Shown: piece by piece, positions 24,501 to 63,792 of the stretch
Position numbering within the stretch: position 1 is the first letter of the stretch
Layout: every line of letters begins with the position of its first letter
Assembly (NCBI RefSeq): GCF_022045235.1
Contig: NW_027266275.1
Span: 41,168,001 to 41,232,000, forward strand
Source: Haliotis cracherodii
Taxonomy: Eukaryota
DNA length: 64,000 nucleotides
Direction: 5' to 3'
Program-made: the position numbers and the translations under genes
The notes under the pieces: generated by a model
Database searches by the model: none
Told to the model about the DNA's origin: nothing
What the model saw: the letters and a program-made list of their open reading frames with translations, nothing else

Positions 24501-27500
24501 TTCTCAATATTTAAACTTATCCTATCTCACACTTTGCATTTCTCCCTTCTTCTTTGATCCTATGTGGGAACGTGCTTGAATCATGTTTCCAGCTTCTGAA
24601 ATAAAGATAGCCACACAAGCCCCCCTGCATCTCCATGGCTACATCCAAAAGCTAGGTCAATTAAATGCCTCTCATGCACACCGTGCCTGCTTGAACTGAC
24701 CACGTGTACACCGTGCCTGCTTGAACTGACCACATGCACACCCTGCCTGCTTGAACTGACCACATGCACACCCTGCCTGCTTGAACTGACCACTTGTACA
24801 CCGTGCCTGCTTGAACTGACCACATGCACACCGTGCCTGCTTGAACTGACCACATGCACACCGTGCCTGCTTGAACTGACCACATGCACACCGTGCCTGC
24901 TTGAACTGAACACATGCACACCGTGCCTGCTTGAACTGACCACATGCACACCGTGCCTGCTTGAACTGACCACATGCACACCCTGCCTGCTTGAACTGAC
25001 CACATGCACACCGTGCCTGCTTGAACTGACCACATGCACACCGGGCCTGCTTGAACTGACCACATGCACACCCTGCCTGCTTGAACTGACCACATGCACA
25101 CCCTGCCTGCTTGAATTGACCACATGCACACCGTGCCTGCTTGAATTGACCACATGCACACCCTGCCTGCTTGAACTGACCACATGCGCACCCTGCCTGC
25201 TTGAACTGACCACATGCACACCCTGCCTGCTTGAACTGACCACATGCACACCCTGCCTGCTTGAACTGACCACATGCACACCCTGCCTGCTTGAACTGAC
25301 CACATGCACACCGTGCCTGCTTGAACTGACCACATGCACACCGTGCCTGCTTGAACTGACCACATGCACACCGTGCCTGCTTGAACTGACCACATGCACA
25401 CCGTGCCTGCTTGAACTGACCACATACACACCCTGCCTGCTTGAATTGACCACATGCACTGCGTGCCTGCTTGAATTGACCACATGCACACCCTGCCTGC
25501 TTGAACTGACCACATGCGCACCGTGCCTGCTTGAACTGACCACATGCGCACCGTGCCTGCTTGAACTGACCACATGCACACCGGGCTTGCTTGAACTGAC
25601 CACATGCACACCCTGCCTGCTTGAACTGACCACATGCACACCCTGCCTGCTTGAACTGACCACATGCACACCCTGCCTGCTTGAACTGACCACGTGTACA
25701 CCTCTACCAAATCATTCCCTTTCTCATCGCCACCGTGTGGTGACGTGTTTGTAATATCAGAGAATATTGTTTGTCCTTCGCCAAGTTGTCAAGTATCCTA
25801 CGGCCTATAAATATGGGAAAAAAGGACAAACAATGTCCTGCTTGTAAACAATGCAGATGTACTTATTCCGCGTCCGATCCCGACTCATTATGTTGTGACA
25901 TAAATGTAGTGTTATAATTAATAAGATGTATACATAGTTCCTTTCCATGCTTGTGTTTTAGGTGAAGTGTATGCAGCAGATCTGTGGAATGATCGTGTTC
26001 TTCCACCCCGACCACCCAGACCAGTTCTACAGACTCTGGACATCTCTCTTCCTCCATGGCGGGTCAGTCACATACATGCTACATCATATAGAATAGGTCC
26101 AGCAACATCAGTCACATCCTCCAACTCAAGACAGGGCTTGTATCAGTATACATATGGTGTTCCCATGTGTATCCTTGTATGCAGTGAGGCAGTGTCAGAA
26201 ATAACTGCCTGCCTGCCTGCCCGTAGCTGGTAACTTTTCTGTCAGGCTGCATGAAATTTTCCTCCACCTGCCCGAGTCTCGGGCAGATAATTTTAAGACT
26301 ACTTACTCAGTATTCAGTTTTATAACTCCTTGTAGATTCTCAAGTAATTGTTTGCATTATTTCAACTGAATCAAGACGTTATTTGTCTCTTAGTTTTTGT
26401 GATTTTTCCATATTCATAATGTTTGAATGTGGGCATGTAACTTTGAAGATGGGCAGGCAACAGTTATGAGTCACCTGCCTGACTGTCTTGTTTGGTTTTG
26501 TAATTATTTCAAACACTACAGTGGGGTAGCACCATGGTGAAGGTGATTCCCCACTTGGATGCAATGTTCCTTGCTGTGATGTGGGAATATTGCTCAAAGC
26601 CATGTAAATCCCTCCTCACAGTCACTTATGGATGTTTTCTTGTCCTACTTATGTGATGTGAATTCCAGGGATTGGTGGAGCCTGAGGGCTCTCAAGCGTT
26701 ATTTCATTGTTTGGGGAGGGTTGGGGGTGGTGGGGTCTGACATAAAAACATACTGGGGACATAAGGCACACTAACTTCCAAATCTCTTGATGACATAAAA
26801 GCAACACTTAGCATAGTGCTTGCCCTGAAACCTTACACAAATTGTAAATTTATGATCAATGAAGAAATTGGATGTTATATATAATGACTATTCACCTCTT
26901 CTCTCAGGTTGATTCACCTGTAATATATACTGACTAATCACCTCTTCTCTCAGGTTGATTCACCTGTGATATATTCTGACAATTCACCTCTTCTCTCCAG
27001 GTTGATTCACCTGTGATATACAATGACTATTCACTGCTTCTCTCCAGGTTGATTCACCTGTGAAATATTCTGACTATTCACCTCTTCTCTCCAGGTTGAT
27101 TCACCTGTAATATATACTGCCTATTCACCTCTTCTCTCCAGGTTGATTCACCTGTAATATATACTGACTATTCACCTTTTCTCTCCAGGTTGATTCACCT
27201 GTGACATATACTGACTATTCACCTCTTCTCTCCAGGTTGATTCACCTGTAAAATATCCATGACTATTCACCTCTTCTCTCCAGGTTGATTCACCTGTGAT
27301 ATATACTGACTATTCACCGCTTCTCTCCAGGTTGATTCACCTGTAAAATATCCATGACTATTCACCTCTTCTCTCCAGGTTGATTCACCTGTGATATATA
27401 CTGACTATTCACCACTTCTCTGCAGGTTGATTCACCTGTGATATATACTGACTGTTCACCTCTTCTTTCCAGGTTGATTTACCTTTGATAAATAATGACT

Positions 27501-29052
27501 ATTCAACTCTTCTCCAGGTTGATTCACCTGTTATATATAATGACTATTCGCCTCTTCTCCAGGTTGATTCACCTGTTATATGTAATGACTATTCGCCTCT
27601 TCTCTGCAGGTTGATTCACCTGTGATATATACTGACTATTCACCTCCTCTTTCCAGGTTGATTCACCTGTGATATATAATGACTATTCACCTCTTCTCTG
27701 CAGGTTGATTCACCTGGTCATCACAGTGGGGTTCCAGGTCCTAGTGATGAGGGACATGGAGAAGCTGACGGGTGCTATTCGTATGGCTATCATCTACCTA
27801 GGCACCGGCATCTGTGGCAACCTTGCCAGCAGTGTCTTCCTGCCGTATGTTGTAGAGGTGAGATCATCTTTCACAGCTCACCTTAAACAACCCCTACTTA
27901 TTGCAGCCTGAGTTGCCTTCATCCTAGGAATAGGCCCTTTCCAAGATTTGAAAGCAATTCCAATTATTGACCATTAGTTTCAGTATCAGATGTGTGGGTC
28001 ATTTTTTGTATAAGATTGACAAGACGATGGTATTTTCTGACCCTGGTAATACGTATTTGGCAAATTCCTTTTCAGTGAGTAGTTTCAGAGATGAACAAAA
28101 TTAAATTCAACTGAATGGAACTAAGAACCCCAATCAGAAAATAAAAAAAAAAATAGGTCAGATGTATTTTTGTTTGCATGACTGCCCTATCTTTGATAGA
28201 TAAGATAACAAAGATACAGCAGAAACAGTCATATGAAACTATGAATGTTTTAAGCTATGATTAATCACATGTATTGTATGCAGCCTCTGGCCACTGCTGA
28301 CCTCGAAAAAACAGAACAAAACTTTCAGAAGTAGACATTGTGAATATATATGCATGTTGCTGTAATATACTTCACCTCTTTGCCTTGAACAAAATATTTA
28401 GCATATATGTTTTCCCACTATGCTGACCGACCAAATGCCAAATGAAATAGGAAGACTATTGAGCTACACAAAAGTTTTTTCTTATTTTTATATCAACTAA
28501 CACAATTTGGTAAAAAGTTTTTAGAAAAGTGCACCCTTATTGTGAAAGTTTTCAATCCATGCATGCCGTTTCTATGGTAATCCTGTGCTGACAATGGTGT
28601 GTCTATTCCAGGCTGGCCCGTCCGGCTCCCAGTTCGGCATCCTGGCCTGCCTGCTGGTGGAGGTGCTACAGAGTTGGCCCAGGTACAAGAAGCCAGCCAT
28701 TGCCGTGCTCAAACTCGTTGTTCCGATCGTCATACTTTTCCTCCTGGGACTTTTACCGTGGTTTGACAACTGGGCTCACTTGTTTGGCTTCTTCTTTGGC
28801 TTCCTCCTCGCGTTTGCATTTTTGCCGTACGTGGCATTCGGAAAACTGGACCGGCGACGGAAGATTATCACTATTGTCATCACACTGTGCTTGTCTGTCG
28901 GCATCTTTGTCCTGCTCGTCATCTTGTTTTATGTAGTCCCACTCACAAACTGTCCTGGGTGCCAGTATTTCAACTGTATTCCTTTTACAGCCGATTTCTG
29001 TAAAAACATGGGCGTCACCATCAAGAGAAATTCTACGTATAGCACATTTTAG
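9483..29052 (+). CDS. RHBDF1: Inactive rhomboid protein (iRhom / RHBDF1-2 ortholog), 14 coding exons, ~762 aa
   Basis: Exons 9483-9589, 12316-12631, 13898-14005, 14978-15114, 16220-16459, 19600-19711, 21257-21331, 21976-22137, 22395-22483, 23085-23148, 23467-23649, 25962-26062, 27704-27857, 28612-29052. All GT-AG with matching phases, 2289 nt. Motifs [79 protein letters not shown]. Confidence 0.95.
10182..10662. mobile_element. MITE, same family as 56130-56625 (degraded copy)
   Basis: Begins caatctcattaaaat; the internal sequence aligns by eye with 56130-56625. Confidence 0.8.
11112..11455. mobile_element. Tc1/mariner(pogo)-type MITE with TA TSD
   Basis: TIR ccgtattcgacg(a/t)aataagcgccca at both ends, flanked by TA/TA. 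A second partial copy lies at 36049-36355. Confidence 0.88.
11833..12085 (-). mobile_element. Penelope-like retroelement 3' remnant with a minimal hammerhead-like motif
   Basis: Minus-strand [19 protein letters not shown] resembles the C-terminus of PLE GIY-YIG ORFs, followed by TTGACAA-C-GGTATA(loop)TATACC-GAAACGTC at 11908-11871. Confidence 0.7.
12316..12631 (+). CDS. RHBDF1: iRhom coding exon 2
   Basis: [12 protein letters not shown]...GKLKK...RKDSVVKM; cAG and GTAAGT boundaries. Confidence 0.9.
12720..13429. mobile_element. hAT-like MITE (8-bp TSD gtagttac) with a nested SINE
   Basis: TAGGG...CCCTTA termini; gtagttac at 12712-12719 and 13430-13437. Confidence 0.7.
12823..13092 (+). mobile_element. 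tRNA-derived SINE (5'-truncated) with (ACTC)n tail
   Basis: B box GGTTCGAATCCC, tail aaagcggcataaaaccaaactcactcactc, flanking repeat caaaattttga on both sides; closely similar to 54730-55009. Confidence 0.9.
13898..14005 (+). CDS. RHBDF1: iRhom coding exon 3
   Basis: [25 protein letters not shown]...; polypyrimidine-tAG acceptor and CAG|GTATAT donor; phase 0/0. Confidence 0.85.
14470..14898. mobile_element. Degraded MITE-like element with repeated (A/C)CTTGAA motifs
   Basis: Termini agggtttgtacag ... ctgtatgaacctg are imperfect inverted repeats; internal ccttgaa repeats. Confidence 0.55.
14978..15114 (+). CDS. RHBDF1: iRhom coding exon 4
   Basis: [18 protein letters not shown]...; tgcAG / GTAATG. 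Confidence 0.85.
16220..16459 (+). CDS. RHBDF1: iRhom coding exon 5
   Basis: ...[14 protein letters not shown]...[12 protein letters not shown]; ttcAG / GTAGGC. Confidence 0.92.
16484..19198 (+). mobile_element. Non-autonomous DIRS1-like (tyrosine recombinase retrotransposon) element: ITRs plus internal complementary region (ICR)
   Basis: ~190-bp inverted repeats at 16497-16686 and 18966-19155. ICR 18827-18917 is complementary to the joined right end plus left end. GC-rich interior with no intact RT/YR. Confidence 0.8.
19600..19711 (+). CDS. RHBDF1: iRhom coding exon 6 (TM1)
   Basis: [28 protein letters not shown]. Confidence 0.95.
19930..21267 (+). repeat. Minisatellite (~29/39-bp units, catacttacatgccctgtgttgtactgtc) merging into the iRhom exon 7 acceptor
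   Basis: Direct tandem repeat; the Cys-rich ORFs here are repeat translations. Confidence 0.95.
21257..21331 (+). CDS. RHBDF1: iRhom coding exon 7
   Basis: [25 protein letters not shown]; 75 nt, phase 0/0; the acceptor is the last unit of the upstream minisatellite. Confidence 0.88.
21976..22137 (+). CDS. RHBDF1: iRhom coding exon 8 (iRhom homology domain)
   Basis: [15 protein letters not shown]...[13 protein letters not shown]. Confidence 0.95.
22395..22483 (+). CDS. RHBDF1: iRhom coding exon 9
   Basis: SLLSTFLKW...[11 protein letters not shown]. Confidence 0.93.
23085..23148 (+). CDS. RHBDF1: iRhom coding exon 10
   Basis: [21 protein letters not shown]. Confidence 0.93.
23467..23649 (+). 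CDS. RHBDF1: iRhom coding exon 11
   Basis: [27 protein letters not shown]...[12 protein letters not shown]. Confidence 0.95.
24672..25702 (+). repeat. 30-bp minisatellite (cacatgcacaccgtgcctgcttgaactgac), ~34 copies
   Basis: Exact 30-bp period visible line to line. Confidence 0.97.
25962..26062 (+). CDS. RHBDF1: iRhom coding exon 12
   Basis: [34 protein letters not shown]. Confidence 0.95.
26190..26518 (+). mobile_element. hAT-like MITE (TIR CAGTGT..GAAATAA, 8-bp TSD)
   Basis: TSD cagtgagg/cagtgggg; an inverted homologous copy lies at 46849-47172. Confidence 0.82.
26875..27716 (+). repeat. 47-bp minisatellite whose unit is the iRhom exon 13 3' splice site (18 units)
   Basis: Unit tgactattcacctcttctctccAG|GTTGATTCACCTGtgatatatac; the last unit is the real acceptor (AG 27702-27703). 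Confidence 0.95.
27704..27857 (+). CDS. RHBDF1: iRhom coding exon 13
   Basis: [51 protein letters not shown]; the acceptor is the last unit of the 47-bp array. Confidence 0.95.
28612..29052 (+). CDS. RHBDF1: iRhom terminal coding exon 14
   Basis: [17 protein letters not shown]...[18 protein letters not shown]...[14 protein letters not shown], stop TAG. Confidence 0.96.
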   Translation, partial: AGPSGSQFGILACLLVEVLQSWPRYKKPAIAVLKLVVPIVILFLLGLLPWFDNWAHLFGFFFGFLLAFAFLPYVAFGKLDRRRKIITIVITLCLSVGIFVLLVILFYVVPLTNCPGCQYFNCIPFTADFCKNMGVTIKRNSTYSTF

Positions 29053-37229: not shown

Positions 37230-37515
37230 TGAGTGAGTGAGTGAGTGAGTTGGGTTAAACGCCGCTTTTAACAGTATACCAGTTATATCGGGGCATGTCA
37301 GCTTAATGTGCGAGGAAAGCCCGAAGTGATGCTGATCTCAGACGTTTACCACTTCGGTGAAACCCATGAGCACGGGTGTGGTGCTGACAAACCTAGAAAC
37401 AATTGGGGCGAACTGTGATTCGAACCCACAATCATAGGTTTCTGGCGTGCCCAAGGGACGCAACTCTGCACAGCGAATCACAGCGCCATAGACGACTGGA
37501 CCCCCCCGAGCCCCC
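37230..37515 (-). mobile_element. tRNA-derived SINE, full length
   Basis: Reverse complement of 54730-55009; (GAGT)n tail; flanking repeat tgggagat(c/t)tg. Confidence 0.9.
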
Positions 37516-40832: not shown

Positions 40833-41019
40833 TTACAAGAAGCGTTGGTTGTTCCTCCAGGACATGTAGAAGTGTTTAGCCTGCTGTAATGGGGTGAAGT
40901 AGAGTGACGCGTAGAAGAAGAAGTCACACACCAGCCTGGGAATAATGGGCCATACAATTGATGTTAGAAACACAGTCAATAGCGTCTTGCCAAAGTCCTT
41001 TACGTTCTTCAATGTGGAG
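40833..41019 (-). CDS. BFAR: BFAR terminal coding exon 7
   Basis: STLKNVKDFGKTLL...VWPIIPRLVCDFFFYASLYFTP...RFL*. Confidence 0.92.
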
Positions 41020-44000
41020 CTGGAAAAGGCAACATAATTATATATTTTACTTTGAATTGTATATTTATATCCTTATCCTATCGCACATTATGCCCATTTC
41101 ATACAATGCATTTCTTCCTTTTTCTTTCGATTCTATGTCCAAAATGTGCTTAAACAAGGCCATAGTGACCGAGACTAACATGTCCACCAAGTCCCACAAT
41201 GTAGTCATAGTGAAAAGTCCAACATGTCCAGCATGCCCCACAACGTAGCCATAGTAAGAAAGCCCTATACGTCCACCAAGTAACACAATGTAACCATAGT
41301 GACCAAGACTAACATGTCCACCAAGTCCCACAATGTAGTCATAGTGAAAAGTCCAACATGTCCAGCATGCCCCACAACGTAGCCATAGTAAGAAAGCCCT
41401 AAATGTCCACCAAGTAACACAATGTAACCATAGTGACCAAGACTAACATGTCCACCAAGTCCCACAATGTAGTCATAGTGAAAAGTCCAACATGTCCAGC
41501 ATGCCCCACAACGTAGCCATAGTAAGAAAGCCCTATACGTCCACCAAGTAACACAATGTAACCATAGTGACAAAGTTCAACATGTCCATCAACACACTCA
41601 TCAAGACACCTGTACAGCTACTCTTTCACTCACCCTGTAACTCACCCATCCCCACAGTAACTCTTTCACCTACCCAGAAACTCACCCATCCACACAGTAA
41701 CTCTTTCACCTACCCAGCAACTCACCCATCCACACAGTAACTCTTTCACCAACCCAGCAACTCACCCATCCACACAGTAACCCTTTCACCAACCCAGCAA
41801 TTCACCCATCCAGACAGTAACTCTTTCACCAACCCATCAACTCACCCATCAAGACAGTCAGTCTTTCACCCACTCAGCAACTCACCCATCCAGACAGTAA
41901 CCCTTTCACCAACCAAGCAATTCACCTATCCAGACAGTAACTCTTTCACCAACCCATCAACTCACCCATCCAGATTGTAACTCTTTTTACCAACCCGGCA
42001 ACTCACCCATCCAGACAGTGAGTCTTTCGCCCACTCAGCAACTCACCCATCCAGACTGTAACTCTTTCACCAACCCAGAAACTCACCCATCCAGACAGTA
42101 ACTCTTTCACCAACCAAGCAACTCACCCATCCAGACAGTAACTCTTTCAACCACCCAGCAACTCACCCACCCAGACAGTAACTCTTTCGCCCAACCAGGA
42201 ACTCACCCATCCAGACTAACTCTTTCACCAACCCAGCAACTCACCCACCAGACAGTAACTCTTTCACCAACCAAGGAACTCACCCAACCAGGCAGTAACT
42301 CTTTCACCTACCCAGCAACTCACCCATCCAGGCAGTAACTCTTTCAACTCTTTCTACCGGAGCAGGATCCAATGAATAAGTAAGGAAGCCTCTACCATTG
42401 AGCAACTCACCGAACTGCCGGAGCAGGATCCAATGAATAAGTAAGGAAGCCTCTACCATTGAGCAACTTACCAGAACTGCCGGAGCAGGATCCAATGAAT
42501 AAGTAAGGAAGCCTCTACCATTGAGCAACTTACCCTAACTGCCGGAGCAGGATCCAATAAATAAGTAAGGAAGCCTCTACCATTGAGCAACTCACCGAAC
42601 TACCAGAGCAGGATCCAATGAATAAGTAAGGAAGCCTCTACCATTGAGCAACTTACCCGAACTGTCCGAGCAGGATCCAATGAATAAGTAAGGAAGCCTG
42701 TACCATTGAGCAACTTACCCGAACTTCCGGAGCAGGATCCAATGAATAAGTAAGGAAGCTTCTACTCTTGAGCAACTTACCCGAACTTCCGGAGCAGGAT
42801 CCAATGAATAAGTAAGGAAGCCTCTACCATTGAGCAACTTACCCAAACTGCCAGAGCAGGATCCAATGAATAAGTAAGAAAGCCTCTACCATTGAGCAAC
42901 TTACCCGAACTGTCCGAGCAGGATCCAATGAATAAGTAAGGAAGCCTCTACCATTGAGCAACTTACCCGAACTTCCGGAGCAGGATCCAATGAATAAGTA
43001 AGGAAGCTTCTACTCTTGAGCAACTTACCCGAACTGCCGGAGCAGGATCCAATGAATAAGTAAGGAAGCCTCTACCATTGAGCAACTTACCCAAACTGCC
43101 AGAGCAGGATCCAACGAATAAGTAAGAAAGCCTCTACCATTGAGCAACTTACCCAAACTGCCGGAGCAGGATCCAATGAATAAGTAAGAAAGCCTCTACC
43201 ATTGAGCAACTTACCCAAACTGCCGGAGCAGGATCCAATGAATAAGTAAGAAAGCCTCTACCATTGAGCAACTTACCCGAACTGCCGGAGCAGGATCTAA
43301 TGAATAAGTAAGGAAGCCTGTACCATTGAGCAACTTACCCGAACTGCCGGAGCAGGATCTAATGAATAAGTAAGGAAGCCTCTACCATTGAGCAACTTAC
43401 CCGAACTGCCGGAGCAGGATCCAATGAATAAGTAAGGAAGCCTCTACCATTGAGCAACTTACCCGAACTGCCGGAGCAGGATCCAATGAATAAGTAAGGA
43501 AGCCTCTCCCAGTGAGCAACTCACCCGAACTGCCGCAGCAGGATCCACTGTTTAAGTAAGGAAGCCTCTTGCATGGAGAGGAAGGCACAGCTGAAGAGGA
43601 CAAAAAAAGAGGTCCAGAACTGCCCACTGAACAGGGCCCACGTCAGCTTGGCAATTAGCCAGTAGGGGAGGAGAACTGCATTACTCAGAAATACCACCCA
43701 CTGCTGCTTAGTTGGGGAAGGAATCTGAAATCAGATGACCTTCTCATTACTTACAGGAAAGACTGGAACACATTTCCAGGAATGATGAAAAACACCTAAA
43801 AGCCTTACCATCAAGAACAGCAAAAAGGCTTGCCCTCATCTGGTATGGGAGCAAGACGTACCTGAGACCACCGGAAGGGGATGTCTTCGTCCTGTGCTGG
43901 TGTTGTGAGATGGAGGAAGGGCAGGAAGATTTCCTCATGGTAGAACAGGAACAGATACAGCAGTGTTGTACGAGGGAAGTCCTTCATGCCATACAGCAGG

Positions 44001-47000
44001 AACAGACAGCGACCAGGGTACAGCGCCTGGTAACAGTCACAATGTCAACATGACTTCTGCAAGCTTCATAAATATTCTTTATTCTCTGGCATTGGTGCAT
44101 GTATTCTGCATTTTTCCAGTTCCGTGTGCACTGGAAACTTTGCATGTGCAGATATACTAGGGATATGTCGATCTTACTTGTGGGAAGGCTTGACAGGGGA
44201 GTGAGTGAACTTAGTGTAACCCATCAGTCACAATTGTCCTGACACAGTGGCCTGCAGATAATCATGTCTGTTCCAGCAGATCAGTGACTATAAACAACAA
44301 TACCATACCATAGGGCTATGATGACTAGTCAAGTCACAGAGACTGACTCCCTGATCACAAGCATGAGCTCTGGGAACCTATTCCAAACCAGAATACCCAC
44401 TTGGGCCTCCGAGTAGAAGTAGTGCACTTCATCAGCAACTGCTGGTACACGACATAATGTGCCAACCTGCTGTCTACTCAGCCAGAATGTCTAAATTTGT
44501 AGTCTCTCCTCCATACCTTATATTCCCAGAGTGTCGAAGGCATCTTGACCCCTTTCAGGCGTACATCCTCTATAGCAATGACCAGTGCCCTCTCATGGAG
44601 GTGATTCGTCACATTCAGGACCTCACCAATATTCTCCTCGTCCAGGGAGAGCAGCACTGCACCATCTGTGGGAAGAGATGATATCATTTACACACACAGA
44701 AGTTCACATCAGAAGATGACTGCTGCAATAAGCTTGTAACTAACAGCATTCATAACCATCACAAAAAAAACTAAGCTTAAGTGAAAAAAAATAACATCTC
44801 ATAAGGATGACTGGCATATCATGGAAGATGCCGCCTGTCAAACTCTACATCTGCATAACATCTCAATACTGTCATGAAAACTTTCAAGCTATCATTGTGA
44901 AGTTGCTTTGTTGGTGGCAAGCGTTTAACTTGATTTGCCCCTAAATCATACATTCTAATCAGCCAAATCAGCAATCATACCAACTACCCCCTGTACCCTG
45001 TACCAACTACCCCCTGTACCCTGTACCAATAACTGCCTGTACCCTATACCAGCAACTCCCTGTACCCTATACCAGCAACTCCCTGTACCCTGTATCAACA
45101 ACTCCCTGTACCCTATACCAGCAACTCCCTGTACCCTATACCAGCAACTCCCTGTACCCTACACCAGCAACTCCCTGTACCCTATACCAACTACCCCCTG
45201 TACCCTATACCAACTACTCCCTGTACCCTATACCAACTACCCCCTGTACCCTATACCAACTACCCCCTGTACCCAATACCAACTACCCCCTGTACCCAAT
45301 ACCAACTACCCCCTGTACCCCATACCAACTACCCCCTGTACCCTATACCAACTACCCCCTGTACCCTATACCAACTATCCCCTGTACCCTATACCAACTA
45401 CCCCCTGTACCCTATACCAACTACCCCCTGTACCCTATACCAACTACCCCCTGTACCCTATACCAACTACCCCCTGTACCCCATACCAACTACCCCCTGT
45501 ACCCTATACCAACTACCCCCTGTACCCTATACCAACTATCCCCTGTACCCTATACCAACTATCCCCTGTACCCTATACCAACTATCCCCTGTACCCTGTA
45601 CCAACTACTCCCTGTACCCTATACCTATACCTAAACCCTGCTTAAACTGAATGTGTGTGAGTTGATGAATTCTGCAACCAGAACTTTGAACCAATCAACT
45701 TGTTATCATGGATAATTAAAAAGTACAGCTACTAAGATACAGGCCTATTACCTTATCACTGACATCTATCATTGTTTCTTTGTTTGAATTAGATCAAAAT
45801 GCAGCAAAACAATGATCTGAAAATACTTCCTTCACTATTAAATTCAGTTTGGTATTGAAGGTCATTTCAAGGCAGTCATACATATATTCTTGGACCTAGA
45901 TAAGATGTCAGCCTTATCACTGACTGCAAGCATAGCAATGAATGGGTTAGTGTAACAGGACACAGACCTACAGCCCATGTGGATAGTGGCACTAACTCTC
46001 CCACCTACCAATGCCCTTCTGGTGGACGGCATCAGCATAGCCCTCTGCCCAGCCCATGTGTGTCAGCCATGCTGCCACGTCGTCTGGCTTCCACCTCACA
46101 ACAGGCTTGTGTATCAGGAGATCATCGTCACTGTGCCTCCAAAACCAAACCAAGTATGCTATCTAGACAAACACATACAAAGTGTAAGTTGCCCATATCT
46201 TTTGCCACTGTTTTATTATGCATTCAGAATTTAATTCATACAAAAATAAAACAAAATTCAAGGTAGCCATATTGAAAGTCAAAAGGGGATAATATAAGCA
46301 AACTTAATTTTAGCAACCTAACTGATCAATGTAGACTCTGAGGGGCCCAGTGGTAATTTGTTGATCAGAATTACATCCCTCAGCCATGCCAGGATCTGCT
46401 GATAGTGAGTTCCAATCCCAATTTTGTTCTGATTATGGTCATGGATGTCAATTCAGTGGTAAACGTCTACAACCTAAGTCACTGTGGACTAAGTACTACT
46501 GTACTTGGAATATCCCTCACCAGAATAACCCCTAGGGTCATGACGATCCCCTTACAGAACTCCCCCGGGTTTACTCTCTGTAGGTGGCTCCCTGTGCCGG
46601 AAAGACGCCGGTCAAATTCCTGCACCTTGCCTACATTCTCTAAATTCAATACTTCCTCTTCTCTTTCCATCATTCTGTCTTTGTACATCTTCTTCATCAT
46701 ATTTCTGAAAACATTCAGATGATTGTCATAATCATAAAACTGATCATTTTTTTCTCATAGATGAAACATTCTTGATCAGTGAATGGTTGGTCATGAGCAT
46801 GGAGGCTGTATTATTCCACAGTGAGCAATATTCTAGCTATTTCACACCCAGTGTTTGAAATAATTATAAAACCCAACAAGACAGTCAGGCAGGTGACCCC
46901 GAAATATTGCCTGCCCATCTTCAAACTTACCTGCCCATGTTCCGACATTATAAACATTGAAAATTTGCGAAAAATAAGAGACAAATCACGTCATTATTCA

Positions 47001-47707
47001 GTTGAAATAATACAAACAATTACTTGAGCATCTACGAGGAGTTATGATAAAACTGAATACATAAGTAGTCTTAAAATTCTCTGCCAGACAGTCGGGCAGG
47101 TGGAGGAAAATTTCATGCAGCCAGACTGAAAAGGCAGGCAGGCAGGCAGGCAGGCAGTTATTTCTTACACTGTTCACAGCAGCCTGTAAATAAATCAAAT
47201 CTGTACACGACAAATCCTAAGTATAACACCCATCATTTCAGATGACTCTTACACCACTGAAAGAGTGAGTAATTCCAATATTCCAATGACATAACGGAAG
47301 GCTGTAAACAATAAGTCTGGACCAGACAAACCAGTGACTGAAAGCATGAGCAACAATCAAAGCCATCGTGATACGATGACATGCAAGAAGTCATACCACC
47401 AGATCCTCATTAGATGACTCTTACAACAAACATAGAATACTGGGGACCATGTTATTTCAAGGTGCTGGAGCCAGGTCTAACCCTTCTAATCGTCCTACCT
47501 GAGTGCTGTGTTAATCTTGGGGTGTCCCTGCCACTCCTGGCGACACGTAGGGCACTCTTTCTTGTTGGATGTGAGGAACCAACGTGACAGGCACACCCGG
47601 CAGAAGTTGTGGCCGCACACTAGCGTCGTCGGATCCACCATCAGCTCATAGCAGCAGCTGCACATAAAGTCACTATCCGAGTCAGTCCTAGACAGTGTAG
47701 CCATCAT
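40833..47707 (-). CDS. BFAR: Bifunctional apoptosis regulator (RING finger, SAM domain, multi-TM ER E3 ligase), 7 coding exons, ~415 aa
   Basis: Exons 47707-47499, 46704-46521, 46162-46009, 44665-44517, 44026-43862, 43724-43525, 41019-40833. GT-AG with consistent phases, 1248 nt. Motifs CSCCYELMVDPTTLVCGHNFC..C..W..ECPTCRQEW, DLLIHKPVVRW, GVKMPSTLWEYK, PGRCLFLLYGMKDFPR, LLPYWLIA, WPIIPRLVCDFFFY. Confidence 0.93.
41160..41590. repeat. 134-bp higher-order tandem repeat (three ~45-bp subunits), ~3.2 copies
   Basis: catagtgac recurs at 41161, 41295, 41429 and 41563. Confidence 0.9.
41615..42350 (-). repeat. ~40-bp minisatellite carrying a GG|GTGAGTTGCT donor-like motif (minus strand)
   Basis: Plus-strand unit actctttcaccaacccagcaactcacccatccagacagta, ~18 copies. 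Confidence 0.93.
42357..43570 (-). repeat. 62-bp minisatellite whose unit is the 3' end of BFAR exon 6 plus its 5' splice site (~19 units)
   Basis: Minus-strand unit AGGCTTCCTTACTTATTCATTGGATCCTGCTCCGGCAGTTCGG|gtaagttgctcaatggtag; the first unit is the real exon end. Confidence 0.95.
43525..43724 (-). CDS. BFAR: BFAR coding exon 6
   Basis: IPSPTKQQWVVFLSNAVLLPYWLIAK...FWTS...WILLRQFG; donor GG|GTGAGT. Confidence 0.9.
43862..44026 (-). CDS. BFAR: BFAR coding exon 5
   Basis: ALYPGRCLFLLYGMKDFPRTTLLYLFLFYHEEIFLPFLH... Confidence 0.92.
44517..44665 (-). CDS. BFAR: BFAR coding exon 4 (SAM)
   Basis: DGAVLLSLDEE...GVKMPSTLWEYK. Confidence 0.92.
44975..45628. repeat. 21/22-bp minisatellite (accaactaccccctgtaccctat), G-rich on the minus strand
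   Basis: ~29 tandem units in BFAR intron 3. Confidence 0.95.
46009..46162 (-). CDS. BFAR: BFAR coding exon 3 (TM / SAM start)
   Basis: IAYLVWFWRHSDDDLLIHKPVVRWKPDDVAAWL... Confidence 0.9.
46521..46704 (-). CDS. BFAR: BFAR coding exon 2
   Basis: NMMKKMY...GEFCKGIVMTLGVIL; tttcAG / GTGAGG. Confidence 0.88.
46849..47172 (-). mobile_element. hAT-like MITE (same family as 26190-26518)
   Basis: TIR cagtgtttgaaataa / ttatttcttacactg; TSD ttcacacc/ttcacagc. Confidence 0.82.
47499..47707 (-). CDS. BFAR: BFAR coding exon 1 (RING-HC); the exon extends to an acceptor at ~47836
   Basis: C3HC4 RING; in-frame TGA immediately before the ATG; donor AG|GTAGGA. Confidence 0.93.
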
Positions 47708-53178: not shown

Positions 53179-56100
53179 GTGAGAGCTTTATTTTTACTTT
53201 CGCTTTTACGAAACTTATTTCAAAAATACATTAGGTTCTCAAACTGTTCATCATAATTTGGTTGTTAATGTCATGTTAATTGTTTGGTATCTTGGACATT
53301 TTTTCGTTCGGTGTCAACCTCTGATATCCGTTACACATCATACATTTCGGAAAAGAAATCAAATTTCGCGGCATCTTACTTCGAATATACCACTGGGCCT
53401 ATTGTACATTTTGGCACATCATGTACCGGCCCCTCATACCGCTACACTTTGGCTATTACATCAAAATGTTACGTTGTTATCATCCATTACAAAACTAATC
53501 ACCACCATGACGAAAATACATGGAAGTTGAACGGGCAGTGGTAAATCTATACTACTTTTGTTCTAGATATATAGCCTGCAACCTCGGGGTATCGCGGTAC
53601 TTGTCATGTACGCTAAACAGAACAAAATGCACTCACTAACCTTTATGATTATTCGTGTTCTCTGTATCAGATATCATTCATTTTATCAAACAATGCATAT
53701 TTTACTGATAAAAGTTCATTATTCACATTAGTAGCTCCGAGTAAAAGCCGGGCCTCGCGCTCTGTTTGACAAGGGTGAGAACTCCATCGTATCGCAGTAC
53801 AGAGAAAAGTTATGTATGGAGGTCCGAATTGGACAAACAGAGGACATAATTCTACCAACCACTTGGTATGATCATGCATGACATCAGTGATTTGTCCAGA
53901 CAAGTGCAAAGACAGCACAAGTAAAATTCTAAATGTGTTATCAGCAATAGGTATTCAATGCATTTTTACCGAAAAGTAAGAGAAAAATATTTTTGTAAGT
54001 CAACAACAAAATATCAGAAATGATATTTTAAGATTGTTTAAAAAAAATTGGATGACAATAATTTATCACAAAATGGAAAAATGTTAAAAGTCAACAATAA
54101 ATATATAAAAATCACTCCTAGTATGCCCAAAGTATGTATTTATCTTTTGACTTCTAGTGAAGAACGTATTTCTAAGTTTGGCATTATGGCCCTTATGATC
54201 TCCCAATAGATTCTGGGCACAGAGCGGGAAAAAATGTGCGGACTACGTAACTTCCGTTACCTCATTAGTCGCCCTGAATATGCAGATGATCTAGTTCAGG
54301 TCGATCGAGAAAGTTTACTTGGGAACTGTGGGTTATATCGTTGGCCATTGATAGATGGGGGTAAGGCAATATTACAACAGATGCCAGAAATATATATTGA
54401 CGGATTAATAACTCCTTACTTATAGCAGACGGAACATTCCGAGGAAATTGAAATTGTTTACGAAGTGAGCACTTCCTGGTTACCGATTTGCATTAATAGA
54501 CAGCTGCTAAGAGGCGTGTCCCGCGTGAACTATCAGAAATCACAAATGCCGCGATACGATGAATGCCGCGGTACCATGGGGTGCGAGTATACTTATAACA
54601 CTATGACACTGGATTACACATTAGGCACATTAATGCACATTTCTACCAGGGACCACTTATTGTATAAAAAAAAAATCCTCAGTGGATACTTTATAACACT
54701 GCAGTTTACTGGGTGCACCTCAGAGTGAGTGGGGGGCACGGGTGGCCCAGTCGTCTAAGGCGCTGCGATTCGCTGTGCAGAGTTGCGTCCCTTGGGCACA
54801 CCAGAAACCTATGATTGTGGATTCGAATCCCGGTTCGCCCCGATTATGTTTCTGAGTTTGTCAGCACCATACCCGTGCTCGTGGGTTTCACCGAAGTGGT
54901 AAACGTCCGAGACCAGCATCACTTCGGGCTTTCCTCCCACATTAAGCTGACACGCCGCGATATAACTGGAATAATGTTAAAAGCGGCGTTAAACCAAACT
55001 CACTCACTCAGAGTGAGTGATAATTGGCTCACGCTGCAGGGTGTGACTATAGCATTTCTTACTTCACTGATCTTTCATGCCTTTATAATCCATAGGGTTA
55101 GCTGTGAGTTAGTGTGTTTATTAGCTAGCTCTTTTAACAAATAAATACAATGTAATTGGAGTAAAATCAGTCATGTTATCAAGTTTCAAGTTTCATAGAG
55201 GAAATGGCTACTGTGCATGTGCATAAAGGTATACAAACGGGTGCTGATGACTTAGTAAACATGCACTAATTATTTGCACGGGGTAGAGTGTGGGCTAATT
55301 AGGTACTTATTCTCCCCTTTCTTGTATTATGATATATAAGCTTAAAATACAAAGTTTTGTTTAAGCATGTATAGAATGTGAATGTTGCCCATGGTTAACT
55401 CTAAATAGACAAAGTTCTCATTATCATTGTTTCGCAGTGGAATGAAAATAAATGCTAAAGTTTTCTATTCACCTTTTAATTACATATTAAAAGACAGGAC
55501 AATTGAATGTAGAACACTACACAAAAATATTAGTATTTCCCTTACGAAATTATTCTGAATATGACTGAAAGTTAAACTATAAACAATGATGTCATACTGA
55601 CTATGATGAGCACTGTCAGTCTAAGTAACAATACATTCTTATGTCTAGTCACCACTATGGTTGAAGTTAGACTTCTTTAAAAACCAGCCGACATGCTTTT
55701 TTATATAACACAAACATTCAGGCAAAAGTATATGCATTTTAATGTTCTCTCAGCAAAATTGAATGTGTTTGCGACAAAGTCCATTTCCTGAAAACAAATA
55801 TATAAACAAACAGTTATCCTTAACATTCCTCCAATACACGTTGAAATCATGTGCACCGTAAAATTCAATCTGCAAAGTAGGTCACTATGTTCTTGTATTT
55901 TAACTAAACACACCAGACAATCCATGAACAGTTCTTCAGTCCAATCATAGTAGCATTAGATGACATCAGGAGTTAATTTCACTCATGTAGAATTATGTTC
56001 CAAGTTTCATTACCATTTCCCGTTTATGGAAAAGTCAAAAGTTCTCAAAGGGGACAAACAACCAATGTTGAACCATTGTGAAAACATGAACAGAGCCACT

Positions 56101-59100
56101 ATTATGAGATTACACACAGAGTATTAGTTCAATCTCATTAAAATCAGATCTTAATTCTTGCTACAGCTAAACAAAGATCAGAGGGCACCCTATTGTGGGT
56201 CACGTCAGACCGACCTTGCGCAAACTTTGACTTACCAATGGAATGACTGACAAGAAGTCGACATTATCCAATCAGAAGGCAGCTTTCTCATGCTTTATGG
56301 CACTAGTTTCAAATTGGTGACTTCGCTTCGAAACATATTTTGTCAAATTCTCGATTACAAATTTGAAACCTAAACAAAAGAACATTCTGGAATGGCTAAT
56401 AGATAGTCTAAATTGTATGGATTCAGTCGTTAAGCCCGTAACTAACATTCGGAATACCCCGTGTTAAAGTTTTTGAGGTTGCATGATCAGAAATCACTTT
56501 CATGATCCGGTAAGCGACGCTCTGATTGGTCGGATATAAGGTCATTCTAATGTGAGCCCTAATGGGATGTCCTCAGACTTTTGTTTAGCGGTAGCGAGAA
56601 CTAAGATTTGATTTTAATGAGATTGTGTATTAGTTATGCCAGTTATGAGGTAAAGTACACATTTGGTCGGGAGATTGATAAAATGTTGAACTCTGCATGA
56701 AATTGTTTAATTCCAAATTCAGTGCGCATTAACATGATTAAAACAGGTGTAGTACAGTATGTCTGCTGAGTGCTAATGTGTATACCACAGTGTAAACATG
56801 GTAAATTTACACTGGAAACAGGTGAGATTGATCTTTGTTGCCATGGGATGAAATGCTGAAATATGTACAGAGACATATCCAGGTGGTTTCAGAGACTTAT
56901 CTTCGTCCCCATGTCTGCAGTAAATTTTGGTGAAAATCAAAACATTGAAATTAAATATTTCCCAATTCAAGTTATTATGATTACATCTAATGTTAAATTT
57001 TTGTCAAGGTACTTTTTATTGCACTGATAAGTGGACCAATAAATAGTAAGATTTTGATATCATCTTCACAACATTGCTACTGGAGCAATGTCAGCATTCT
57101 TGAAATACATCGGAATGCAGCTGAAAGAAACTCTGGGCCTTCCACATTTTCCAAAACCTGTATATTGGGGGGAATACTGTTTCTTCCATATTTACCAGCC
57201 ACAGGCAGAGGTGCTTTGTGTAATATCTTAGATATTGCTTGAGCTACTTATGAAGCTCTGTATTATGATGATTGTTGTTATTTTATTACTTGTCTGTATT
57301 CATTGTGTTCAGGTTATTTTTATGAATTTGGCCAATTACAGACTTTAAGGAATGTCTCAGTCAAATCGAGGAAGCTATCAAAGAAGCAGACTTCCTTGCG
57401 ATTGATGGGGAATTTACAGGTAGGAAACACCATATGTATTATCAGCTGACCTTTGGCACATGTTGTAAAACTATACTTTCTGGAACCTTTCAGCATTTGT
57501 TCAGCCTTCAAAATATTTACTTAATATCAGTTAATTTTTGGTGTAGTTCTGCAGTGAAGACTAAAGTCTACACAGTAGAGTGACATCAGAATATAGAGAC
57601 ATCAGCATGATCAGAATAAAGCGACATCAGAATAGAGTGACATGAGAACAGAGCGACGTGAGAACAGAGCGATATCAGAAAAGAGTGACATCAAAATAGA
57701 GTGACATCATAAAAGAACAGCGTCGAAGTAGAGTAACATCAGCATGATCAGAATAGAGCAGCATCAAAATAGAATATTATTCAAATAGAGTGACATCGGA
57801 ATAGAGCGACATCGGAATTGAGTGACATCGGAATAGAGCGACATCAGAATTGAGTGACGTCGGAATTGAGTGACATCAGAATAGAGCGACATTAGAATAC
57901 AGATCTATCAGAATAGCCATATGGTGGACATAACACTTTCTCAGATGAATAAATCCAACTTTTCAAATTTCTTTTTGCATAAGTATAATCATGGTGCCTA
58001 CATCATCATGATCAAAGCCCCAAGTACCTACATCATCATGATCAAAGCCCCAAGTGCCTACATCATCATGATCATAGCCCCAAGTGCCTACATCATCATG
58101 ATCAAAGCCCCAAGTGCCTACATCATCATGATCATAGCCCCAAGTGCCTACATCATCATGATCATAGCCCCAAGTGCCTACATCATCATGATCAAAGCCC
58201 CAAGTGCCTACATCATCATGATCATAGCCCCAAGTGCCTACATCATCATGATCAAAGCCCCAAGTGCCTACATCATCATGATCATAGCCCCAAGTGCCTA
58301 CATCATCATGATCATAGCCCCAAGTGCCTACATCATCATGATCATAGCCCCAAGTGCCTACATCATCATGATCATAGCCCCAAGTGCCTACATCATCATG
58401 ATCATAGCCCCAAGTGCCTACATCATCATGATCATAGCCCCAAGTGCCTACATCATCATGATCATAGCCCCAAGTGCCTACATCATCATGATCATAGCCC
58501 CAAGTGCCTACATCATCATGATCATAGCCCCAAGTGCCTACATCATCATTATCATAGCCCCAAGTGCCTACATCATCATGATCATAGCCCCAAGTGCCTA
58601 CATCATCATGATCATAGCCCCAAGTGCCTACATCATCATGATCATAGCCCCAAGTGCCTACATCATCATGATCATAGCCCCAAGTGCCTACATCATCATG
58701 ATCAAAGCCCCAAGTGCCTTCATCATCATGATCATAGCCCCAAGTGCCTACATCATCATGATCATAGCCCAAGTGCTTACACCATCATGATCATAGCCCC
58801 AAGTGCCTACATCATCATGATCATAGCCCAAGTGCTTACACCATCATGATCATAGCCCCAAGTGCCTACACCATCATGATCATAGCCCCAAGTGCCTACA
58901 TCATCATGATCATAGCCCCAAGTGCCTACATCATCATGATCAAAGCCCCAAGTGCCTTCATCATCATGATCATAGCCCCAAGTGCCTACATCATCATGAT
59001 CAAAGCCCCAAGTGCCTACATCATCATGATCATAGCCCCAAGTGCCTACATCATCATGATCATAGCCCCAAGTGCCTACATCATCATGATCATAGCCCCA

Positions 59101-62100
59101 AGTGCCTACATCATCATGATCAAAGCCCCAAGTGCCTTCATCATCATGATCATAGCCCCAAGTGCCTACATCATCATGATCATAGCCCAAGTGCTTACAC
59201 CATCATGATCATAGCCCCAAGTGCCTACACCATCATGATCATAGCCCCAAGTGCCTACATCATCATGATCATAGCCCCAAGTGCCTTCATCATCATGATC
59301 ATAGCCCCAAGTGCCTACATCACCATGATCATAGCCCCAAGTGCCTTCATCATCATGATCATAGCCCCAAGTGCCTACATCATCATGATCATAGCCCCAA
59401 GTGCCTACACCATCATGATCATAGCCCCAAGTGCCTACATCATCATGATCAAAGCCCCAAGTGCCTTCATCATCATGATCATAGCCCCAAGTGCCTACAT
59501 CATCATGATCATAGCCCCAAGTGCCTACACCATCATGATCAAAGCCCCAAGTGCCTACATCACCATGATCATAGCCCCAAGTGCCTTCATCATCATGATC
59601 ATAGCCCCAAGTGCCTACATCATCATGATCATAGCCCCAAGTGCCTACACCATCATGATCATAGCCCCAAGTGCCTACATCATCATGATCAAAGCCCCAA
59701 GTGCCTTCATCATCATGATCATAACCCAAGTGCTTACACCATCATGATCATAGCCCCAAGTGCCTACATCATCATGATCATAACCCAAGTGCTTACATCA
59801 TCATGATCATATGGAAATTGTTGTATTGGAAAAGACAAATTAAAACGTTAGCTTATAACAGATGATATTAATTGTGTGTAATATGTTTAACATATTTTAT
59901 TTGGAATGCAATCAATATTATATTGATTGTCAGGACTTCATGCCAAGGATGCTGAGTCAATCGGATCATTTGATACCCCTGAAGAGAGATACCACAAGTT
60001 GAGGAAGGCAAGTGAAATGGACCAGTTTCTTGCCTGCATTGCAAATTTATGTCATGAGCATTAAAGGGATTATTTCAACTGCCAATTTCCATGGTTCCTT
60101 GAAAATGTTATCATCTGGAACAAGCATCCTAAAGTTTTAACTTTAAAACTTTAACCATACAGATTAATTTGCTTGTAGACTTAGTTGCACAATTTATGAT
60201 GACAACATCGCTGCACGTTCAGTACATGAAATATAACTTTTCAAATCTCAGTTTCAGGGCAAGCATGGCAAGTTTATGTTCAATGTTTGCATGTCCTGCA
60301 TATAATCTGTAGTTTTTTGTTTCAGGGTGCAGCACATTTTTTACTTGTACAGTTTGGCCTAGCAGCTTTTAAATATGATCCAGAGAAAAAAAGGTATGCA
60401 TGCATGATATATGCATGTAGTTCATCAACATTTAATGTCACTGATAGCCTTTCTAACATAAAGTCTTTTACGTTTTAACACAAGATGTACAAAGCAGTAA
60501 CTCAGATTGGTGACCTGCTTGAGGGGCACATTTTGGTTATGTAATGGGATTGAAGAGAGAGGGAATTGCAGAGGTTGTATTAGGATAAGAATGACATGTA
60601 TACATATATAATAAATATTATAATTTATATAACATAACTCTCCATCTCTGATCCTGTCCTCTAAAGTAATGTCATGTGCAATTGACAGTCATGGCCTGGT
60701 GTATTCTTTCAGTTACACATCCCGACCATTCAACATGTACATATTCCCACGTCCATTCAGTCGCCAGGCTCCAGATCTACGATTTCTCTGTCAGGTCAGT
60801 ACCTAGGAACCGTCATACGACTTTCCTCTCTTTGGAAATGTCTCTCACGAATCACTTAAGAGAGTACTATTGCTTGGATTCTTGAATGTAGGCTCTTGAT
60901 TCTCTCCCTCCAATTGTGTTTGGGCTACGATACCGTTTAGACCTTGACGTCATCAACGGCATGACTGTGAGCAGCTCTCCAAGTCCCGTGTCAATGATAG
61001 TGAAATGCAAACCTCTTGTACACATATATACTTGAGCGAAATTAATCAGCAGGTGTACACAGTTTGAGTAGCGAGTGGTTTCATTCAGAAATAATCATCA
61101 ATACTTTATGGATTTGTACATACTATGTTTCTCAAATCTTATTAAATTCAGATCTTGTACACTGATCTGTTGCCTCTCTCCATCAACATCTGACAAACCC
61201 TTTGTAGCAGGGCGTGTCAGCTGAACCCTGAACGACCTATGACCACCCAATCCACAGGAAGAAAGCATGGGGTTTTGAGATGTCTACTTTCGAAAACGGT
61301 TCACCTGCATTCTGATACTGGCAGCCTGGAACAACACTCTATGGGCAGATGTAGTCATGTTCTAAGTAGCAGAAATGAAACAGAAAAAAAGATTAAATAA
61401 ACATGACTGGAACGACATGATATAAAATATTTGCAGCACAGCACAGCACAAACATTATTATTCATCATTAGGATGTGTCAATTTATGATGATTTTAAAGA
61501 TGCAAACTAATGAGGTATGTTGTTGTGAAATGGTGAAGCTTCGCTGACTTGTATGGAGACGAGGAGTCTCCACACTAATTGGGCGTTGCGATCTGATGTA
61601 GAGGGTTTTGTCAGATATTGCTGGAGAGAGGCATCAAATTGAAGTCTTATTGATATAAATGAGATTGTGTATCCCTCCATCACACATGGATATGTTTGAC
61701 TGCCATGGTAATGTAAATCTTTAGTCAGCTGATACAATGAAGCATTGTCTAAATCACTGAATTCAAATCATTCTGTCTCAAATCTGTGAATCTTGAACAG
61801 AAACTTACTGATATAATCTGAGCATCCATTGGCCAGAGTACTCCCTGGCACACATCATACTGGAAGCACTTATTCATGTGAACGAACTACACTTCAAGCA
61901 TAGCCCAATGTGTCTACAGGGAGAAGGATGTAGTGTAAAGACAGCAGCCCAATGTGTCTACAGGGAGAAGGATGTAGTGTAAAGACAGCAGCCCAATGTA
62001 TGCACAGGGAGAAGGATGTAGTGTAAAGACAGCAGCCCAATGTATGCACAGGGAGAAGGATGTAGTGTAAAGACAGCAGCCCAATGTATGCACAGGGAGA

Positions 62101-63792
62101 AGGATGTGGTGTAAAGACAGCAGCCCAATGTATTCACAGGGAGAAGGATGTAGTGTAAAGACAGCAGCCCAATGTATGCACAGGGAGAAGGATGTAGTGT
62201 AAAGACAGCAGCCCAATGTATGCACAGGGAGAAGCATGCAGTGTGAAGGCAGCAGCCCAATGTATGCACAGGGAGAAGGATGTGGTGTAAAGACAGCAGC
62301 CCAATGTATTCACAGGGAGAAGGATGTAGTGTAAAGACAGCAGCCCAATGTATGCACAGGGAGAAGGATGTAGTGTAAAGACAGCAGCCCAATGTATGCA
62401 CAGGGAGAAGGATGTAGTGTAAAGACAGCAGCCCAATGTATTCACAGGTAGAAGGATGTAGTGTAAAGACAGCAGCCCAATGTATGCACAGGGAGAAGGA
62501 TGTAGTGTAAAGACAGCAGCCCAATGTATTCACAGGGAGAAGGATGTAGTGTAAAGACAGCAGCCCAATGTATTCACAGGGAGAAGGATGTAGTGTAAAG
62601 ACAGCAGCCCAATGTATTCACAGGTAGAAGGATGTAGTGTAAAGACAGCAGCCCAATGTATTCACAGGTAGAAGGATGTAGTGTAAAGACAGCAGCCCAA
62701 TGTATTCACAGGTAGAAGGATGTAGTGTAAAGACAGCAGCCCAATGTATTCACAGGGAGAAGGATGTAGTGTAAAGACAGCAGCCCAATGTATTCACAGG
62801 TAGAAGGATGTAGTGTAAAGGCAGCAGCCCAATGTATGCACAGGGAGAAGGATGTAGTGTATACATTCCCAGGATACTGATGATGTGGAGTGTGAGTGGA
62901 TGTTATGAATTTGAGTAGCTATGAAGTTTTACTCATGACATGAATCAGTTAATCACCTCCCCTTGCCTGTCCCGACTGTTGCAGGCTTCAAGTATTGACT
63001 TCCTCGTGTCACAGAATTTTGATTTCAACAAAGTGTTTAGAGACGGTAAGTGACCTTGTGATCGAGTGAATTAGGTGTATGGTTGTTTTGAGCAGTATCA
63101 TGTTTATATCACATTCCTGCTCCCTATGTTGACCTGGGTTAAACTAGTTTCTCACCTCTCTATTGCTTGTAATGGGCAGTAGACTACATTGGTTCAGGTG
63201 TCAGGCATGGTGACGTCATGCTTCAGGCTGCCATGACGTAGAGTGACGTTTGCTGTCTGCAGCATTAAACAACATTCACTCATGCATCTGGACAACGTTC
63301 CAGTGAATGTGTTCCAACAAGGCACTGACTGAGCAAGTGCCTCCACATGAGATCAGGAAACCTGTGCTTCTACATTTTCTACTTTCTACAAATGTAATAA
63401 AGAGAATAACCTACTCTCAACTTATCTGACACTCATGAAGTTATGTTGAAAGTCCCTCGACAAGCATGCAGGTTTATTCTCTAAATACATAACTGTCCTG
63501 GTTACACCAATGTCCTCATCTAGGGCACTCAGAGATTTTGGTATGTAGGTGGTTTCATTCTGTGACAGTCAGTATCTATCCTGCTGTGTGACATATGTTG
63601 AAACTGTCCAGGAATCCCATACTTGACCCCACCACAAGAAGAACGCCTGAAGGAGTCGATCAAGAAGAGGAATGCTGAACATGCCCAGTTGTCATCTCCA
63701 GCTTTCACGAGTCCCCATGGGGCCAGCGCTGGGCCCTACAAGGGGCCAGTAGAGGTCCCAGATGATCAGAAAGACTTCATTGACGATATCTG
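53160..63792 (+). CDS. PARN: Poly(A)-specific ribonuclease PARN (DEDD/CAF1 family), first 7 coding exons; partial, continues beyond the window
   Basis: Exons 53160-53178, 57342-57419, 59934-60007, 60326-60393, 60713-60794, 62985-63045, 63612-63792 splice in frame to MEVTKTNFKECLSQIEEAIKEADFLAIDGEFTG...FDTPEERYHKLRK...FLLVQFGL...FNMYIFPRPF...[29 protein letters not shown]. Confidence 0.95.
54730..55009 (+). mobile_element. tRNA-derived SINE, full length, with Pol III A and B boxes
   Basis: A box TGGCCCAGTCGTCTAAGG, B box GGATTCGAATCCC, tail gcggcgttaaaccaaactcactcactc, flanking repeat cagagtgagtg. Confidence 0.92.
56130..56625. mobile_element. MITE with long TIRs (caatctcattaaaatc...) and 8-9 bp TSD gtattagt(t)
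   Basis: TIR of about 90 bp; gtattagt at 56121-56128 and 56627-56634. Confidence 0.88.
57342..57419 (+). CDS. PARN: PARN coding exon 2 (catalytic D-x-E)
   Basis: FKECLSQIEEAIKEADFLAIDGEFT. Confidence 0.95.
57575..57912 (+). repeat. Degenerate ~17-bp tandem repeat (agagtgacatcagaat)
   Basis: Repeated gacatcagaatagag motifs. Confidence 0.8.
57993..59811 (+). repeat. 30-bp minisatellite (caagtgcctacatcatcatgatcatagccc), ~60 copies, PARN intron 2
   Basis: Exact 30-bp period; the ORFs are repeat translations. Confidence 0.97.
59934..60007 (+). CDS. PARN: PARN coding exon 3 (GC donor)
   Basis: LHAKDAESIGSFDTPEERYHKLRK; donor AAG|GCAAGT. Confidence 0.9.
60326..60393 (+). CDS. PARN: PARN coding exon 4
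   Basis: GAAHFLLVQFGLAAFKYDPEKK. Confidence 0.93.
60713..60794 (+). CDS. PARN: PARN coding exon 5
   Basis: YTSRPFNMYIFPRPFSRQAPDLRFLCQ. Confidence 0.93.
61900..62861 (+). repeat. 44-bp minisatellite (acagggagaaggatgtagtgtaaagacagcagcccaatgtatgc), ~22 copies, PARN intron 5
   Basis: Direct tandem repeat. Confidence 0.97.
62985..63045 (+). CDS. PARN: PARN coding exon 6
   Basis: [20 protein letters not shown]. Confidence 0.95.
63612..63792 (+). CDS. PARN: PARN coding exon 7
   Basis: IPYLTPPQEERLKE...VEVPDDQKDFIDDI; donor GTGAGC. Confidence 0.92.

Follow-up and report, generated by a model that had tools for sequence, protein, structure and literature searches.

When an exon's end and its splice donor are repeated eighteen times down the following intron, does the splicing machinery still choose the first donor, and does the array do anything for its gene? 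The question is raised by the last intron of a BFAR-like gene in the window, by which we mean the whole 64,000-nt stretch of abalone DNA analysed here. Positions are those of the window unless stated otherwise, and the features of the gene and its repeats are collected in Table 1.

The BFAR-like gene

The gene, one for an apoptosis regulator, is identified by P0001, which NCBI names as BFAR-like of Haliotis and which contains RING and SAM domains; P0001 maps to the window in seven coding exons (94-100% per segment) and is 100% identical to exon 6. A normal C-terminus is found in 5/5 clustered Haliotis proteins; these are annotations, and P0001 is possibly a model from the same genome and does not count as independent evidence.

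The BFAR-like gene stands head to head with a second gene (57342-63792, + strand) that we take, from its peptide, to be PARN-like; the model of the latter contains a GC donor, AAG/GCAAGT, at 60005-60013 (+ strand). On primate chromosome 16, BFAR and PARN are listed together in one duplicated block in the portion of the study drawn on here (PMC7419210), and the head-to-head neighbourhood may therefore be very old.

Table 1. Positions of the BFAR-like gene features and of the tandem repeats in its last intron
Feature	Position	Strand	Remarks
BFAR-like coding span	40833..47707	-	coding sequence in seven exons; protein with RING and SAM domains and a hydrophobic C-terminal part
Coding exon 6, 200 nt	43525..43724	-	AG/GT ends; P0001 match; an X3 contig spans 43525-43724 and continues into exon 5
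Authentic donor CGG/GTGAGT, GT at 43524-43523	43519..43527	-	RNA-like contigs exit here to exon 7
In-frame TGA exposed by any downstream donor	43521..43523	-	GGG TGA past real donor
Unit 0: last 44 nt of exon 6 (EASLLKQWILLRQF-G) and first 18 nt of intron	43507..43568	-	holds real donor
18 full intronic units (16 of 62 bp, 2 of 61 bp), each with a donor copy	42393..43506	-	GT at 43462, 43400, ... 42410
Partial copy of exon end, 36 nt, ends before donor; likely seed duplication	42357..42392	-	present alone in organism E
40-bp minisatellite, 18.2 units, 87% matches	41620..42346	-	16 GTGAG donor-like sites
134-bp tandem repeat (45-bp subunit)	41160..41592	.	no GTRAG site on gene strand
Exon 7 (last exon): acceptor AG 41021-41020 and coding part from 41019	40833..41021	-	contigs agree

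Anatomy of the array

Tandem Repeats Finder places the array at 42357-43569 (period 62, 19.6 copies, 94% matches), and a reading of the units agrees with what a first-pass annotation had described, namely a 62-bp unit that joins the 3' end of exon 6 to its donor and recurs about 18 times in the intron. The same annotation had stated that most copies read GTAAGT, and 16/18 do; the remaining two read GTGAGT and both lie in 61-bp units, so that GTRAGT is kept in 18/18 full copies. Unit 0 differs from the copies at 4/30 places. A DNA search of the window's own genome with exon 6 and three units returned this locus only; the search skips common words, however, and a single-locus match therefore does not prove the 62-bp unit to be unique.

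Beyond the 62-bp array the intron holds 17 further GTGAG donor-like sites that the first-pass annotation had missed. The neighbouring 40-bp array contributes 16 of these, and the intron as a whole holds 35 donor-like sites. The 40-bp array and the donor region share a 12-nt exact match, a length reached in 6/2000 shuffles, and with the 62-bp array excluded 24/29 letters are alike (0/2000 shuffles), over a join that was chosen post hoc. Judging from this resemblance, the 40-bp array may be an older wave of amplification from the same donor region.

Two candidate readings of the array were tried and rejected. Intron gain through new acceptors inside the array is not indicated, as the best acceptor score there is 3.8 against 8.7 for the real acceptor. 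Purifying selection on the copied donors is not indicated either: their nine columns hold 5 variant alleles against 13 in the 53 other columns, and the copied donor positions are conserved no better than the rest of the unit.

The locus in a close relative

The age of the array can be approached through organism E, represented by the DNA-like runs X19 and X21, which differs from the window at 11 places in 680 nt. In each run a single contig leads from exon 6 through the donor and the 36-nt partial copy to the letters that lie behind the array in the window, where they match 42327-42356 at 28 and 29 of 30 places. No full 62-bp unit was seen in either of the two organism E DNA runs, with the proviso that short-read contigs can mishandle repeats; full copies thus number 18 in the window and 0 in organism E, and the gap between the two is 1114 nt, exactly 18 units. 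The donor of organism E is GTGAGT, and at two intron positions this organism agrees with the window's copies. The organism E contigs then enter the first letters of the 40-bp array and end there, from which it follows that the 40-bp array may be common to both.

As the 18 units are absent in organism E, the array is either young or was lost there, gain and loss being inseparable with a single outgroup. Among the units of the window, variant blocks recur (units 8-9-10 and 12-13-14; 5, 6, 7 and 11; 15 and 18), a pattern that fits unequal exchange among units.

Splice-site arrays elsewhere in the genome

Tandem arrays, counted here at a period of at least 15 and at least 4 copies, are abundant in this genome: the 664 kb around the window contain 103, which cover 12% of it. 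The frequency with which such arrays lie across exon edges was estimated in a further 800 kb, taken from eight other places around myosin genes and hence not a random sample. Exons were called with a finder built from the window's genes and from myosin matches (the reading frame of one training exon being wrong), which made 212 calls on real sequence against 26 on reversed-sequence decoys; it was used instead of first screens of array ends by motif and open frame, which were too noisy. In this sample 12/424 called exon edges were straddled by one of 140 arrays, against 4.4 expected at the deep-intron rate (P 0.002). Donors account for 9 of these (2.2 expected) and acceptors for 3 (2.2 expected), and a Myosin_head match was found in 5/12 straddled exons, two of the matches being weak. 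We conclude that the straddling layout is common in this genome. A preference of the arrays for splice sites as such cannot be claimed, since intron-interior starts at 0-100 nt are equally enriched (12.2 expected, 12 seen) and several of the straddled-edge calls are doubtful; were only 7 of the 12 genuine, the excess would lose significance (P 0.16).

Individual examples are found in the window and near it. In the iRhom-like gene, the acceptor at 27704 of a rhomboid-domain exon is spanned by a 47-bp x 18 array (26873-27716, + strand) with 15 upstream candidate acceptor copies; 13 of them have a higher score than the last copy, the one directly next to the complete exon. The first-pass annotation had described the BFAR array as mirroring this one; the likeness is real, but we reject a special pairing of the two, because such arrays are also present in the PARN-like gene, in a number of myosin genes and in a gene that is CCZ1-like. 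The acceptor of the next PARN-like exon, just past the window, lies in an 86-bp x 6 array with 5 acceptor copies (G000:C12:41232799-41233311, that is L049:799-1311, + strand), and a Pfam search of this array-bearing exon gave no match. In a clear further case, an exon that has an Intu_longin_2 match and whose gene is presumably CCZ1-like is followed by a 43-bp x 33 array (G000:C12:41430859-41432273, L088-L089, - strand) in which 29 donor copies are nearly identical. Donor- or acceptor-spanning arrays with 4 to 22 site copies each also lie in or beside myosin genes at L122, L131, L132, L142, L143 and L174.

Repeats of other kinds are present as well. A GC-rich stretch between poly-C and poly-G runs in the iRhom-like region (17300-18590) resembles a decayed mobile element, and a short interspersed repeat, recognized by eye, has two copies on opposite strands (37240-37510 and 54740-55020).

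Donor choice and its alternatives

Are the copies good enough to compete? The first-pass annotation had held them to be closer to the U1 consensus than the real donor, and the answer depends on the measure. By Watson-Crick matches to that consensus the claim stands, with 8 matches in 11/18 copies against 7 at the real site; by predicted U1 duplex energy it does not, as the best copy reaches -11.4 kcal/mol against -11.5 kcal/mol for the real site and 0/18 copies are better. Scoring of the sites, which had been proposed along with the claim, was carried out with a matrix made from 20 other donors of the same window, and it is divided too, placing 12/18 copies above the real site and 6/18 below. 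On sequence grounds, then, the copies are ordinary, usable-looking donors and are not clearly stronger than the real one.

The outcome of using a copy can be predicted. The earlier reading that GGG TGA follows directly past the real donor, at the expense of the hydrophobic C-terminal stretch, agrees with ours: the product of any copy would end at residue 354 of 415, losing the last 61 residues and with them the hydrophobic stretch 367-385. Nonsense-mediated decay (NMD) is triggered by a stop more than 50-55 nt upstream of a junction. The exposed TGA lies 58 nt upstream of the junction that the first copy would form, and farther upstream for later copies, and a message that uses a copy would accordingly be a predicted NMD target.

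One might suppose that the copies serve as donors at a low level or under regulation, that part of the BFAR message is sent to NMD in this way and that array length tunes BFAR dose. Every copy keeps its GT and exposes a stop at least 58 nt upstream of the new junction, 12/18 copies outscore the real donor and, in human CBS and 6-16, the nearest copies are used according to the part of the F7 report that we cite (PMC1557585). What weighs against this supposition is, in the first place, the assembled transcripts. None of the 22 runs listed is recorded as RNA; 18 were guessed to be RNA, and 7 runs were compared with the locus. The RNA-like status of these runs is a guess, but the contigs are spliced. 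The junction count that the first-pass annotation had called for was run on assembled contigs, with the following results: (i) X1 and X2 (organism A) and X11 (organism E) each gave one contig into exon 7 whose upstream letters are of the unit 0 type, with a further 10 loose ends and 54 pieces outside this count; (ii) contigs from exon 6 in X3 and X4 (organism A) exit at 43525 to exon 7 in 2/2 cases; (iii) contig depth on units 1-2 in X3 and X4 was 0; and (iv) no copy-type junction was seen in the four organism A contig sets, where contigs drop rare isoforms. The first donor is thus joined to exon 7 in 5/5 RNA-like contig sets, from organisms in which the array is maybe absent (organism A) or absent (organism E).

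These counts describe the assembled message. X1-X4 come from one study of organism A, whose sequence is slightly different from the window; the array is known from the window assembly, and organism A may or may not carry it. X11 is from organism E, which is without the array, and it is therefore silent on the copies. NMD would lower copy-type isoforms beyond what is already dropped in contig assembly, and low-level use of the copies, hidden by NMD, is possible.

Further points against a dose-tuning array come from the comparisons above. Regulated unproductive splicing needs conservation of the array in related species, and the array was seen in 0/2 organism E DNA runs; the donor columns are unconserved; and an identical layout occurs in unrelated genes. 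The role that the first-pass reading implies for the copies, as competing decoys that feed NMD, is not supported in view of contigs that use the first donor, a relative without the 18 units and donor columns no better conserved than the remainder of the unit, and we consider control of BFAR dose by the array improbable.

U1 is known to protect introns, and the 35 donor-like sites might bind it, shield the last intron from early cleavage or aid exon 6 recognition, and be kept for that purpose. Donor-like sites do occupy two adjacent arrays, and the 40-bp array is maybe common to organism E; that organism nevertheless splices BFAR normally without the 62-bp units, and with no sign of constraint we regard this as very unlikely. 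Equally little credence is due to the notion that an error of assembly produced the array or the greater part of it, for although the only DNA runs compared are the two of organism E and neither shows the array, 18 variant alleles in recurring blocks are unlike copy errors of one unit and comparable arrays cover 12% of the region.

A working model

We favor the possibility, at a probability of roughly 85%, that the locus is a tandem repeat with its first unit across the exon 6 donor, that its growth was likely recent and began with a short duplication at the end of the exon, and that its copies are likely bypassed and neutral. In a first step, 36 nt of the exon end would have been copied 62 nt downstream; this seed state is present in the relative, and its place in the order of events is our inference. 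Misalignment of the exon end with its copy, by slippage or unequal crossing-over, may then have produced full, donor-bearing 62-bp units, and a +3 G-to-A change in an early copy would have spread to 16/18. As work on human F7 suggests, the spliceosome would take the first donor and yield the normal 415-aa protein. Any leak into a copy would meet a premature stop and, by prediction, NMD, and the array would consequently carry a low cost; it probably has no function of its own.

A broader proposal, which we put forward as tentative and on balance doubtful, is that an exon-end-biased process in abalone makes donor-spanning minisatellites at about 4% of donors (9/212 called exons, where 2.2 would be expected), and that two successive waves (40 bp, then 62 bp), together with the seed state, are recorded at the donor of BFAR exon 6. 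If such a process were at work, it would amount to thousands of natural splice-choice experiments per genome, and if the donor bias were genome-wide, long-read RNA from abalone would test the F7 rule that the most upstream donor wins at many non-mammal loci.

The BFAR locus taken singly matters little, as its arrangement is already known from humans and lancelets. What modest value it has lies in a before-and-after view of how an array starts, with the seed duplication in one species and 18 units in another, and in a first rough rate of such arrays for a mollusc. Gene predictors can be misled by arrays of this kind.

Comparison with known systems

The BFAR array belongs with the exon-intron boundary minisatellites of the F7 IVS7 or 'mirage' type: it is a head-to-tail repeat, its terminal unit lies across the boundary and the signal is kept. 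There is precedent for this arrangement in the human F7 IVS7 37-bp VNTR and its kin in CBS IVS13, 6-16 intron 2, lamin B2 and PDGF intron 4 (PMC1557585). According to the sections of that report drawn on here, the most upstream F7 site alone is used, even after the copies have been strengthened to a consensus value of 91; competition is seen with perfect copies, and splicing from the closest one or two copies also occurs in CBS and 6-16 (PMC1557585). As in the F7 type, the first BFAR monomer lies across the exon-intron boundary and the donor is repeated down the intron, and the copy number resembles that of PDGF (16-18 x 81 bp) and CBS (15-20). The most upstream F7 site gives the mature message, and in BFAR the first donor is the one seen in contigs, from organism A, which may or may not carry the array, and from organism E, which lacks it. 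The differences are that the BFAR unit is mostly exonic (44/62 nt), that position +3 of most copies departs from the real site, that the host is a mollusc and that a relative preserves what is likely the seed state; moreover, exclusive first-site use and allele length variation are described for F7, whereas BFAR is known from contigs and one array-bearing assembly.

Internal tandem repeats at exon-intron boundaries are also described as forming new introns, in what we draw from that study (PMC2812944). The BFAR array is like them in being a boundary repeat able to offer extra splice sites, and unlike them in that the contigs show neither a new intron nor an alternative transcript and the unit's best acceptor scores 3.8 against 8.7. 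For abalone or other molluscs, we found no report of a splice-site minisatellite in the openly licensed literature, supplements aside.

Among invertebrates, a parallel is provided by the lancelet 'mirage' minisatellites of Adh3, the globins BflGb6 and BflGb9, troponin C and PGBD5, which, in the portions of the two reports used here, leave splicing undisturbed (PMC3087553, PMC3902484). In lancelet and abalone alike, a single genome has boundary duplications in several genes, at donors as well as at acceptors, and the BFAR unit falls within the lancelet range of 10-160 bp. The abalone arrays differ in belonging to another phylum and in having a rough genome rate, measured here at 12/424 called exon edges.
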